A DNA stretch of 64,000 nucleotides from Escherichia coli O157:H7 (GCA_013403045.1 GCA_013403045.1_3037.1); one strand, 5' to 3'. Counted from the stretch's first letter, positions 60,191 through 63,431 are shown. The notes: generated from the letters alone by a model not told the origin. Program-made: numbers and translations.

Positions 60191-60484
60191 ATGGCCTTAA
60201 AAGCAACGGCACTTTTTGCCATGCTAGGATTGTCATTTGTTTTATCTCCATCGATTGAAGCGAATGTCGATCCTCATTTTGATAAATTTATGGAATCTGG
60301 TATTAGGCACGTTTATATGCTTTTTGAAAATAAAAGCGTAGAATCGTCTGAACAATTCTATAGTTTTATGAGAACGACCTATAAAAATGACCCGTGCTCT
60401 TCTGATTTTGAATGTATAGAACGAGGCGCGGAGATGGCACAATCATACGCTAGAATTATGAACATTAAATTGGAGACTGAATGA
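60191..60484 (+). CDS. rI: lysis inhibition regulator RI
   Basis: 97 aa with N-terminal signal-anchor MALKATALFAMLGLSFVLSPSIEA; length and position match T4 RI. Confidence 0.85.
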   Translation: MALKATALFAMLGLSFVLSPSIEANVDPHFDKFMESGIRHVYMLFENKSVESSEQFYSFMRTTYKNDPCSSDFECIERGAEMAQSYARIMNIKLETE

Positions 60485-60871: not shown

Positions 60872-60896
60872 AGTCTCCTTCGGGAGACTTTTTTCA
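60872..60896 (+). terminator. rho-independent terminator after rI.-1 (UUCG tetraloop)
   Basis: AGTCTCC-TTCG-GGAGACT followed by TTTTTTCATTTT. Confidence 0.7.
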
Positions 60897-60962: not shown

Positions 60963-61151
60963 ATGAAAATTGAAGCACTCAATCAAGAAGGAAATATCTA
61001 CGTCATCATTAATGGTGATTTTTTCGTCGACATGGATGAAGTTACTAGTGAAGAACTTGTAGAATTTCTTAAGAAACGTTATAATATGTGTGATGAAGTT
61101 GCAACTCACATGGCGTGTGCAATATTCTCTCTTTCATATGTGGTGGAATAA
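60963..61151 (+). CDS. small hypothetical protein
   Basis: AGAGGAG ribosome-binding site then ATG (MKIEA...); early promoter upstream. Confidence 0.45.
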
Positions 61152-61354
61152 TGATTAGTATCGAACAAGCGGATAAGATTAAAGAATTGGTAGCTTTAAT
61201 TCGTAAAGCAGACGAGGAACTTAGTGACTTTGCTTGGTTTTCGTCAGGCATTGCAAATAAAGGCATTGATGAACTTGAAGCTAAAGTTGATAATGCTTTA
61301 GAAGCGTTAGATATGTTTCTTGATGAAATTATCGATCATAATACGAGAGTTTAA
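61151..61354 (+). CDS. small hypothetical protein
   Basis: TAATG-coupled ORF. Confidence 0.45.
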   Translation: MISIEQADKIKELVALIRKADEELSDFAWFSSGIANKGIDELEAKVDNALEALDMFLDEIIDHNTRV

Positions 61355-61356
61355 TT

Positions 61357-61551
61357 ATGCTAACACGCGAACAGTTTGAAAAAATCATTAAATTAGCACG
61401 TGATATTGAAATAGATTCATATCAATTGGCAGTTGAGCATTGTGAAGGATATTCATACGACGGTATAGAAGCAGCTAAAAAGGATTTGGACAAATCTAAA
61501 GCTAAGTTAGTTCAATATCTTGAAATGATTAGGTGGAATAATGAAAACTGA
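61357..61551 (+). CDS. small hypothetical protein
   Basis: 64-aa ORF. Confidence 0.45.
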   Translation: MLTREQFEKIIKLARDIEIDSYQLAVEHCEGYSYDGIEAAKKDLDKSKAKLVQYLEMIRWNNEN

Positions 61552-61711
61552 AAAGCAGATGTTTTTAATGAAACTAATTGAAGAATATGCTAATGCAGTT
61601 TCTGACTATGAGTGTTCTTCTCGGGAAAGAGGTACAGCTTTCGCAAAGGAAGAAATGAAAATCATGGTTGATGCTCACACAAAGCTTCAGAATTTTATTG
61701 AAAACGTCATT
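61541..61711 (+). CDS. small hypothetical protein (56 aa)
   Basis: ATG overlapping the end of the upstream ORF; read from sequence. Confidence 0.3.
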
Positions 61712-61716
61712 TAATG

Positions 61717-61746
61717 GTTTACAAGTTGGCAAGGTTATGGTATAGT
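61717..61746 (+). promoter_or_regulatory. early promoter (GTTTACA, 17-nt spacer, TATAGT)
   Basis: Motif read from sequence; followed by an AAGGAG ribosome-binding site and a 34-codon hydrophobic mini-ORF (about 61775-61879). Confidence 0.5.
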
Positions 61747-61881
61747 AATCTTGTCAACTGCCAAGGAGAAGAGAATGAAAGTTTTGTTTGTTGTGTATGT
61801 GATGATTCAATATAATTACCCAATGTTTACTTATAATCTGGTGAACAACATTATTGATATTATTCAAAGGAGTATGTAATT

Positions 61882-62439
61882 GTGAGTGAGTCGAAGAGAA
61901 TCAATATGAAACGATTAGTATTAGAAGTTAGTCCGCTTTTTGGTGAATTGACTATAGAAAAAGTAAATAACATGTATCGTTTGACGCAAGAAGACGATAT
62001 GCTATATTTTACGCCTAGTGAAATCATTCATTTAACCCAAATTGAATATCCTTATACTGATAAAATAGTAAGCATCAATGATGAGCACAAAATTCATTTT
62101 TATTCTTCATGCCCAGGATTTAATATTAAAAGTGAGTCAATGTGTTTATCAGTTATCCATTGGGATAGTTTTATAGCTAAGATTAAATATTTTTATTATT
62201 CTAATGAAAGAAAACATAGTTTAAAATGGCTCAAAAATTGCAATGCTATTATTACTAACGCTTGCAATCAGAATGATGAAACTCTTTTAAATGTATCAAA
62301 ATGTTATGAAGAGGGAGATGTCTTAACTATTCGCCAAATTGACGATTTTCGATCACATATCATTACATTTACCAAAGACGAAGCTATTGCGCTAAAGACT
62401 TATCTTGATTCTGTTATTCCAACTATGATTTCAAAGTGA
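61882..62439 (+). CDS. hypothetical protein, paralog of 62446-62967
   Basis: ORF; C-terminal motif shared with the next gene. Confidence 0.5.
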   Translation: MSESKRINMKRLVLEVSPLFGELTIEKVNNMYRLTQEDDMLYFTPSEIIHLTQIEYPYTDKIVSINDEHKIHFYSSCPGFNIKSESMCLSVIHWDSFIAKIKYFYYSNERKHSLKWLKNCNAIITNACNQNDETLLNVSKCYEEGDVLTIRQIDDFRSHIITFTKDEAIALKTYLDSVIPTMISK

Positions 62440-62445
62440 GGAAAT

Positions 62446-62967
62446 ATGTTTATTTCAAGTGGAAGTGGTTTAATTCGTGTTGAATTTAAAAATGACATCT
62501 TTCTTATTCAAGGAGATGATATTATTAAAATGAGTTATGACGAAATCAAGAAAATTTGTCATGCTCTTGAAAGTCATGGAAAAGTGAACGCTGTTATTGA
62601 TATTGGCGATTTATGGGTGACACTTTATGAAGTATCCGAAGGATTTAACATTGAAGATGAAAATAACATTTTAGCTATTGATAAAAGAAGTGATTTGTTT
62701 GATGTATTAAAAGTTTATGAACAGTCAAATGGCGGAAGAAAAGCTGCATTGATTTATCAAAAACCGCATTCATGTGGAACTGCTTCAATCATTTCAAATA
62801 TTGAAGATGAAGTTGATACTTATATGTGTGTTTTAAAAGCTGGTGGTGACCGTCATCCGGATTTTATTTCTATTCGTCAAAACAATGGAGAAATTTCATT
62901 ATCAAAATCAGAAGCTGAAGCTATGATTAAGTATTTAACAACTGTTACGCCTTCAATGAAAGGATAA
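62446..62967 (+). CDS. hypothetical protein, paralog of 61882-62439
   Basis: ORF; C-terminus ISLSKSEAEAMIKYLTTVTPSMKG resembles ITFTKDEAIALKTYLDSVIPTMISK of the upstream gene. Confidence 0.5.
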   Translation: MFISSGSGLIRVEFKNDIFLIQGDDIIKMSYDEIKKICHALESHGKVNAVIDIGDLWVTLYEVSEGFNIEDENNILAIDKRSDLFDVLKVYEQSNGGRKAALIYQKPHSCGTASIISNIEDEVDTYMCVLKAGGDRHPDFISIRQNNGEISLSKSEAEAMIKYLTTVTPSMKG

Positions 62968-62969
62968 TT

Positions 62970-63431
62970 ATGATTATTAATGAAAACTCTTGGCACTATA
63001 AATTATTCAAATTGTTTAACGATGAATGGCAACGACCTAAGACACTATGCGCATATTTTTGGTCTATTGCCATTCCTACATTTTTCGTTTCTATTTTTGG
63101 ATGTGCTATACTCGTAGGGCTAACAATTATTTGTGCAGAAAGCCTACAACGTTGGCTTATTTTCGGTAGTTTATGGACTCTTCTTCCATCGGCATTTATA
63201 CTTGCACTTTTGGTTGTTTTACTTATTATCGGTTCATTTGTTATTCCTGCACATTTGCGTGAAAAATATAAAGATTATAAATGGAAAAAGGATTATGCTT
63301 TACACGTAGAAAATATTGATAGGGCGTATAAAGGTTTACCTCCTATTCAACCCAAGAAATCGGTTATCGTTGAATTTTTAAAAGCTCGTAAAGCTAAAGT
63401 ATGTCCTGTTATTGAATATAAGGCTGAATGA
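62970..63431 (+). CDS. membrane protein with two predicted transmembrane helices
   Basis: Two long hydrophobic segments. Confidence 0.5.
   Translation: MIINENSWHYKLFKLFNDEWQRPKTLCAYFWSIAIPTFFVSIFGCAILVGLTIICAESLQRWLIFGSLWTLLPSAFILALLVVLLIIGSFVIPAHLREKYKDYKWKKDYALHVENIDRAYKGLPPIQPKKSVIVEFLKARKAKVCPVIEYKAE

Follow-up and report, generated by a model that had tools for sequence, protein, structure and literature searches.

The Locus and Its Gene Layout

The stretch of Escherichia coli O157:H7 DNA analyzed here (64,000 nucleotides of assembly GCA_013403045.1, hereafter the window) carries two adjacent genes, ORF1 and ORF2, and over the surrounding 3.9 kb its sequence is that of Escherichia phage AR1 at 100% identity. 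AR1 is a Tequatrovirus whose host is E. coli O157:H7, and the plus strand of the window corresponds to the AR1 minus strand. In the AR1 annotation the gene order is rI, rI.-1, mobD.5, mobD.4, mobD.3, ar1_103, mobD.1, ar1_101, ar1_100 and nrdC.11, where ORF1 is mobD.1 (AR1_102) and ORF2 is ar1_101, the orthologue of RB32ORF097c. The initial annotation had placed two similar genes here, after rI and downstream of an early promoter and a mini-ORF, and both the genes and this context were recovered (Table 1).

The coordinates of ORF2 coincide exactly with the AR1 annotation of ar1_101, and those of ORF1 depend on the choice of start codon. GTG 61882 has an AAGGAG 9 nt upstream and, in an alignment with T4 mobD.1, falls on the second ATG of that gene, and the AR1 annotation instead uses ATG 61906, which yields a 177-aa protein; because of this spacing and this alignment, we consider both starts possible. 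ORF2 follows on the same strand after a 6-nt spacer, with its GAGG ribosome-binding site overlapping the ORF1 stop codon, and is itself followed after 2 nt by the membrane-protein gene ar1_100, which in turn overlaps the start of nrdC.11 by 4 nt. On the upstream side, the stop codon of the mini-ORF mobD.2 lies 2 nt ahead of GTG 61882; this mini-ORF is annotated in T4 and Bas37, has no annotation in AR1 and gave no match in Pfam or NCBIfam. Further upstream, a promoter scan returned a T4-early-type site (GTTTACA...TGGTATAGT) with 10/12 matches plus the TG extension, near-identical in T4 together with its surroundings, whose letters are those of a putative promoter. ORF1 and ORF2 are thus packed tightly with the downstream membrane-protein gene and nrdC.11, with a promoter-like site of T4 early type upstream.

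Table 1. Features around the ORF1-ORF2 pair, in positions of the window
Feature	Position (nt)	Strand	Description
rI	60191-60484		
Hairpin	60872-60889	+	terminator-like; AGTCTCC TTCG GGAGACT
ar1_107	61069-61266	-	65-aa ORF annotated in AR1, probably a spurious call
mobD.4	61151-61354	+	DUF7438
mobD.3	61357-61551	+	DUF7438
ar1_103	61541-61714	+	DUF7438
Promoter-like site, T4 early type	61718-61746	+	TTTACA, 17-nt spacer, TG-extended TATAGT
mobD.2 (mini-ORF)	61775-61879	+	34 aa, MKVLFVVYVMIQYNYPMFTYNLVNNIIDIIQRSM
ORF1 (mobD.1, AR1_102)	61882-62439	+	185 aa from GTG 61882
ORF1 N-terminal domain, PF24449 (T4_y05I_N)	61915-62205	+	residues 12-108 of the 185-aa form
ORF1 C-terminal domain, PF24448 (T4_y05I_C)	62218-62427	+	predicted third repeat, five strands and a helix; holds the motif
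ORF1 unstable stretch	~62260-62285		codons NACNQNDET
ORF1 C-terminal motif	62362-62427		ITFTKDEAIALKTYLDSVIPTM
ORF1-ORF2 junction	62437-62445		TGA GGA AAT
ORF2 (ar1_101)	62446-62967	+	173 aa, mobD.1 paralogue
ORF2 N-terminal domain, PF24449	62449-62730	+	residues 2-95
ORF2 C-terminal domain, PF24448	62749-62958	+	residues 102-171; holds the motif
ORF2 C-terminal motif	62893-62958		ISLSKSEAEAMIKYLTTVTPSM
ar1_100	62970-63431	+	153 aa, membrane protein

ORF1 and ORF2 share one reading frame and are parted by nine nucleotides from the ORF1 stop codon onward, a spacing that recurs in four other Tequatroviruses. We considered stop-codon read-through into a six-repeat ORF1-ORF2 fusion and found no support for it, the shared frame being most likely a coincidence. 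Several other features of the neighborhood deserve mention. Directly upstream of the promoter-like site lies a second tandem array, made up of mobD.4, mobD.3 and ar1_103, whose 57-67 aa products all match DUF7438 (Pfam, E 1e-15 to 1e-17), with four copies in related contigs. Just past rI.-1, a GC-rich hairpin with a perfect 7-bp stem precedes a run of T and resembles a terminator when read on the plus strand; it separates the rI block from the mobD.x block. The minus-strand ar1_107 runs antisense over mobD.5 and mobD.4.

Paralogy and Distribution of the Gene Pair

An ancient tandem duplication had been proposed for the two genes on the basis of similar size and a shared C-terminal motif, [IL]xxxKxEAxAxxxYLxxVxPxM, which is indeed present in both proteins. 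Their likeness extends well past this motif: BLASTP aligns them end to end at 27% identity over 176 residues (E 5e-9), and their Smith-Waterman score of 95 compares with 30.3 ± 5.0 for shuffled sequences (z 12.8), a score reached by 0 of 2,000 shuffles. Truncating the last 30 residues, and hence the motif, leaves z at 6.9, a value that the N-terminal halves also give by themselves. The two proteins are therefore homologous along their whole length rather than alike in a short C-terminal stretch only. Both match the same two Pfam domains, PF24449 (133.2 bits, E 6e-39 for ORF1; 118.5 bits, E 2e-34 for ORF2; gathering score 24.9 bits) and PF24448 (74.8 bits, E 7e-21 and 81.2 bits, E 7e-23, respectively; gathering score 27 bits), and both match PHROG 1502 over its full length (profile positions 1-178; E 4e-80 and 3e-67). 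Together with their place between rI.-1 and nrdC.11, these matches assign both to the T-even-specific MobD.1/Y05I family. Across five Tequatroviruses dN/dS is 0.09-0.39 for both reading frames, which are under purifying selection.

An identity as low as 27%, within the AT-rich, low-complexity early regions of T4-like phages, could raise the suspicion that the similarity reflects chance or composition, or that one of the reading frames is not a gene. This explanation is already refuted by the alignment, the permutation result, the scores of both proteins far above threshold for two curated Pfam models and the dN/dS values, and it is further contradicted by the presence of ORF2 at no less than 90% identity in about 434 phage (Tequatrovirus) records. 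We conclude that ORF1 and ORF2 are almost certainly true tandem paralogues. Their relationship is already on record, as the RB14 RefSeq entry labels the ORF2 orthologue RB32ORF097c "similar to mobD.1" and the next gene "replaces mobD", and the family itself is already catalogued.

T4 MobD.1, to which ORF1 is directly orthologous at 87% identity, occupies the same position between rI.-1 and nrdC.11. Where AR1 carries the 27%-identical second copy, ORF2, and the membrane-protein gene, T4 carries the mobD homing endonuclease and no trace of either ORF2 or ar1_100. T4-type mobD (at least 95% identical) is found in about 47 records only, compared with the roughly 434 for ORF2, so the tandem pair is the common state and T4 the exception, having lost ORF2 and the membrane-protein gene together to mobD. 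At least two alleles of ORF2 are known, the second (T2/P0010 type) being 56% identical to the AR1 type.

Beyond these genomes the family is narrow. When 1.84 billion representative proteins were searched exhaustively with a profile, only 28 clusters came back, among which there was no outgroup and no functionally characterized relative. A few cluster members bear bacterial names in their source records, and the family members traced to genome records all belong to T4-like phages, classified in the Straboviridae wherever a classification is given. The clusters comprise full-length relatives, among them Dhakavirus proteins, as well as stand-alone C-terminal-domain proteins of 67-87 aa. Neither ORF1 nor ORF2 gave any match in NCBIfam or PADLOC, and hence no tie to known defense or anti-defense models, and literature searches returned no functional study of mobD.1 or y05I. 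The two genes had been described as being of unknown function, which still holds experimentally; the family, however, is already in Pfam and PHROGs, and the similarity in the RB14 record.

Misleading product names have spread, as seen in features of NC_027983 and in clusters P0077 and P0048: the name [quoted passage not shown] is given to mobD.1 and mobD.5, "thymidine kinase" or "prohead core scaffold protein" to family members, and "thioredoxin" to nrdC.11, an RlaP nucleotidyltransferase. In other genera, small proteins of Pfam family DUF7189 lie in the same gene block, at L005:2814-3005, L007:1978-2250 and L018:840-1022. They show weak cross-matches to y05I proteins, namely ORF2 (residues 16-38, E 4e-4), a Klebsiella-phage C-domain protein (E 6e-4) and P0064, in which both domains are present, and may represent one more relative with a single repeat of this fold.

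Dispensability on Laboratory Hosts

Published genome-wide screens of related phages cover both genes. In HIDEN-SEQ, T4 mobD.1 is non-essential, with 58 of its 59 sites disrupted, and Bas37 genes 0207-0209 are all non-essential, with log2FC near 0 and an adjusted p of 1 in two host comparisons. The last of these genes in Bas37 (phage KarlGJung), 0209, is 97% identical to ORF1, 0208 is 98% identical to ORF2, and bas37_0207 corresponds to the membrane-protein gene ar1_100 by position and length. CRISPRi-ART likewise classes mobD.1 as "Not Fit", and a T4 deletion running from nrdC.11 to mobD.3 is viable. Natural lesions are also found: ORF1 and the membrane gene are frameshifted in T2, whose ORF2 variant is split into three short CDS in the annotation, and mobD.1 is truncated in RB14, all of which would fit genes that do little or nothing on laboratory hosts. 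We infer from these data that ORF1 and ORF2, like the T4 counterpart of ORF1, are accessory and dispensable on laboratory E. coli. Given this dispensability and the replacement by mobD in T4, any role would be conditional, for example in host takeover, exclusion or anti-defense. The anti-Druantia gene of Bas37, bas37_0203, was considered as a possible match to ORF1, ORF2 or the membrane-protein gene and rejected; it lies four genes from bas37_0207, beyond nrdC.11, and is read as the nrdC.8 orthologue by length and position.

A Predicted Three-Repeat Architecture

To place the proteins structurally we used two independent AlphaFold models, built from 32 sequences for ORF1 (pLDDT 85) and from 14 for ORF2 (pLDDT 74.5). 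The C-terminal domain of ORF1 is modeled with moderate confidence (pLDDT 68-89), and in ORF2 the N-terminal domain reaches 79-92 and the C-terminal one 49-76. [quoted passage not shown] Pur-alpha is followed in the structural matches by MRP1/2, Whirly p24, StWhy2 and SsgA, the latter being second-best for ORF2, and then by PC4/Sub1 and, weakly, the T5 PC4 homologue; the alignments to Pur-alpha repeats I-II are at 4-13% identity. A three-repeat PC4-like fold is thus predicted with high probability for both proteins. Sequence searches do not reach this relationship: no PurA, Whirly or PC4 Pfam match was obtained at E values up to 1, the family profile gave only chance-level matches among solved structures (E 0.44 and 0.71), and the Whirly KGKAAL-type motif is absent from both sequences. 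In the BFVD viral fold library, the only hits with meaningful scores were members of the family itself. Within the family, a weak, in-register alignment links the profiles of repeats I and III (hhalign P 1.5e-4), with no similarity between repeats I and II or II and III by profile alignment, which is only suggestive of internal duplication.

The closest parallel is Pur-alpha, in which PUR repeats I-II (type I) are combined with a third repeat for dimerization (type II). ORF1 and ORF2 are predicted to have the same number of repeats, but they differ from Pur-alpha in the absence of detectable sequence similarity, in a third repeat of five strands, and in being acidic with conserved Asp/Glu where Pur-alpha has a basic/aromatic binding surface. 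Other members of the fold were compared as well. Whirly/p24 and MRP1/MRP2, also of type I, have the opposite charge, and the tetramer is a feature of Whirly; the likeness of SsgA-like proteins and of the KhtT N-domain, which are bacterial and unrelated in sequence and context, is confined to a single domain. The T5 PC4-like protein (PDB 4bg7) is, like ORF1 and ORF2, phage-encoded.

By analogy with Pur-alpha repeats I-II, repeats I and II would form one intramolecular domain, and repeat III would correspond to the C-terminal domain, with its helix and tail providing the conserved motif. A lone PC4-like repeat is considered unlikely to fold unaided, and repeat III of Pur-alpha dimerizes (PMC7549692). 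Reasoning from these precedents and from the single-repeat Pur-alpha of bacteria, we infer that repeat III of ORF1 and ORF2 is not self-sufficient and would pair with a second copy, its helix/tail motif possibly acting as the pairing element. If repeat III needs such a partner, ORF1 and ORF2 would act as homodimers or as ORF1-ORF2 heterodimers, and stand-alone C-domains of 67-87 aa are what one would expect of a unit that must pair. On the strength of this analogy, we give dimerization through repeat III an even chance.

Natural recombinants of the pair were also encountered. In metagenomic T4-like contigs a single 179-aa chimera, P0011, replaces both genes (L009:3001-3540, L010:3001-3540, L011:1306-1845), joining an ORF1-type N terminus to an ORF2-type C terminus in register at ...NDET|DTYMCV..., where a GATGAA microhomology can be read in the window DNA. 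This breakpoint falls within an unstable stretch of ORF1 (Table 1), which carries a CDQCDQCDQ expansion in BECP11 and in which the mobD.1 gene of RB14 is frameshifted and truncated. Such chimeras, together with the stand-alone C-domains, mark domain boundaries that are useful for experiments.

A Conserved Membrane-Protein Neighbor

The product of ar1_100 (phrog_944) has a conserved N terminus, MIINENSWHYK, and hydrophobic stretches that fit two to three membrane spans; its C-terminal tail is basic. Its homologues are 150-167 aa long and keep an NxNSWHxK N terminus and usually a basic tail, at 26-34% identity where compared (28-30% in tblastn matches). In all six genera checked (Tequatrovirus, Dhakavirus, Gelderlandvirus, a Klebsiella T4-like phage, Kanagawavirus and Kagamiyamavirus), a y05I_C gene lies directly upstream of the ar1_100 homologue. 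The form of that gene varies: it is ORF2 in AR1, a single three-repeat gene in the Dhakaviruses IME08 and dhabil, two stand-alone C-domain genes in Gelderlandvirus SEA1 (the second below the Pfam threshold), a DUF7189 gene plus a C-domain gene in the Klebsiella T4-like phage, and a y05I_C gene in Kosakonia phage 305 and Escherichia phage EcS1. Even the chimera P0011 keeps its ORF2-type C-domain beside the membrane gene in the metagenomic contigs.

This recurrence suggests that the y05I_C gene and the membrane gene form a functional pair, and ar1_100 is a candidate functional partner that is probably co-expressed with ORF1 and ORF2. Adjacency may nevertheless not mean function, since the gene order of T4-like phages is largely inherited; moreover, the membrane protein has homologues in 919 records versus 720 for the full-length family, and its C-terminal tail is not always basic (net charge -2 in SEA1 and 0 in Kosakonia). 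A functional link between ORF1/ORF2 and the membrane protein is accordingly proposed here as a tentative idea. SEA1 also contains a second ar1_100 match, SEA1_gp0093 (L004:6008-6487), about 2 kb downstream of the first, and the membrane protein may thus also be duplicated in some genera.

Origin of ORF2 and Nature of the Ligand

Midpoint rooting of an NJ tree places the ORF2 clade outside all other full-length family members sampled, which form three sequence groups including the Tequatrovirus mobD.1 group and one containing Dhakavirus proteins. Nearly all of these other members share 25-32% identity with ORF2, and within the Tequatrovirus group the mobD.1 proteins share 82-89% with one another. 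Such an outermost position means that the split is old, that ORF2 evolves fast, or that ORF2 was imported. Of the ancient tandem duplication proposed initially, the great age is therefore reasonable and the tandem homology established, but duplication in place goes beyond what can be shown: with a homing hot spot at this position and ORF2 alleles only 56% identical, in-place duplication and acquisition of an already diverged copy are equally possible. The specific scenario in which a long-diverged family member was brought beside mobD.1 by recombination at the mobD hot spot, making ORF2 a xenologue or alternative cassette, draws on the location of ORF2 exactly where T4 has its homing endonuclease, on the divergence of its alleles (AR1 versus T2/P0010 type) against the 82-89% identity of the mobD.1 proteins, on the outlying position of its clade and on the single copy found in Dhakaviruses. 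It is weakened by SEA1, which also has two neighboring repeat-III-type genes (gp0101 and gp0100, the second being the one below threshold), and by the Klebsiella phage, with DUF7189 and y05I_C side by side at this position, since adjacent genes of this type in other genera make in-place duplication a recurrent theme; nor did the 1.84 billion representatives contain a donor lineage with a closer relative of ORF2. We regard such an import as possible, though rather doubtful.

A second question concerns what the proteins bind. The family is acidic, with a pI of 4.2-5.7 in all but one of 19 proteins computed and a net charge of about -1 to -22. When the family set is reduced to members less than 80% identical, 14 of the conserved charged positions are Asp/Glu and a single one is Lys, K157, which starts the last helix, and no conserved Arg/Lys occurs on any strand. 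A basic surface is expected in Pur-alpha, PC4 and Whirly proteins, and by this sequence proxy a basic/aromatic surface for purine-rich ssDNA/RNA of the Pur-alpha type was not found. Given this acidity and the near-exclusive use of Asp/Glu at conserved polar positions, a basic protein is a likelier ligand than nucleic acid; we would put a protein ligand at about equal weight with all other readings taken together. Candidate ligands would be proteins of the host or the phage, or else the C-terminal tail, mostly basic, of the neighboring membrane protein.

Pfam in contrast describes the domains as "y05I-like putative transcription factor", in the sense that ORF1 and ORF2 would work like Pur-alpha, Whirly or PC4 as dimeric proteins that bind and melt ssDNA/RNA and regulate early transcription, replication or RNA metabolism. 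This has a structural rationale: the best structural matches (Pur-alpha, MRP1/2, Whirly, PC4/Sub1 and the T5 PC4 homologue) all bind nucleic acid, as do most PC4-like members, the three-repeat architecture equals that of Pur-alpha, and nrdC.11 in the same block is an RlaP "RNA repair pathway" nucleotidyltransferase. Pur-alpha, PC4 and Whirly moreover bind nucleic acid largely by base stacking on aromatic/hydrophobic residues of the sheet (PMC7549692). Overall acidity leaves room for a local site, but net charges reaching -22, the 14 conserved Asp/Glu against one Lys, strands with no conserved Arg/Lys, and the lack of any PurA, Whirly or PC4 sequence match all speak against this reading. Some members of the fold, such as SsgA and the KhtT N-domain, are moreover not known as nucleic-acid binders. 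We therefore judge nucleic-acid binding rather unlikely and a weaker reading than a protein ligand, and the acidic conserved surface puts the database label in question.

Functional Implications

The paralogy itself adds little, given that the family is in Pfam and PHROGs, that the similarity was remarked upon in RB14 and that the genes are dispensable in genome-wide screens. What is new is the predicted Pur-alpha-like three-repeat architecture, the acidic conserved surface and the conserved pairing with a membrane-protein gene. The first of these, at the level of prediction, offers a concrete handle on a gene that has remained "hypothetical" since the annotation of the T4 genome. The pairing of a C-domain gene with a membrane gene over six genera, within a hyperplastic region, points to a module, and one that is not studiable in T4, since in this reference phage half of it has given way to mobD.

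Taken together, we slightly favor a reading in which ORF1 and ORF2 are dimeric, protein-binding accessory factors that would pair through their third repeats and possibly act with ar1_100. A more elaborate version, in which the two form an asymmetric heterodimer through these repeats and their acidic surface controls the membrane protein or a host DNA/RNA-binding protein, is decidedly improbable. [quoted passage not shown] Were the heterodimer to prove true, the MobD.1/Y05I family would be the second known combination of type I and type II PC4-like domains after eukaryotic Pur-alpha, its acidic surface would serve as a nucleic-acid mimic or adaptor, and the locus would represent a conditional module for host takeover, exclusion or anti-defense that T4 has lost to a homing endonuclease.
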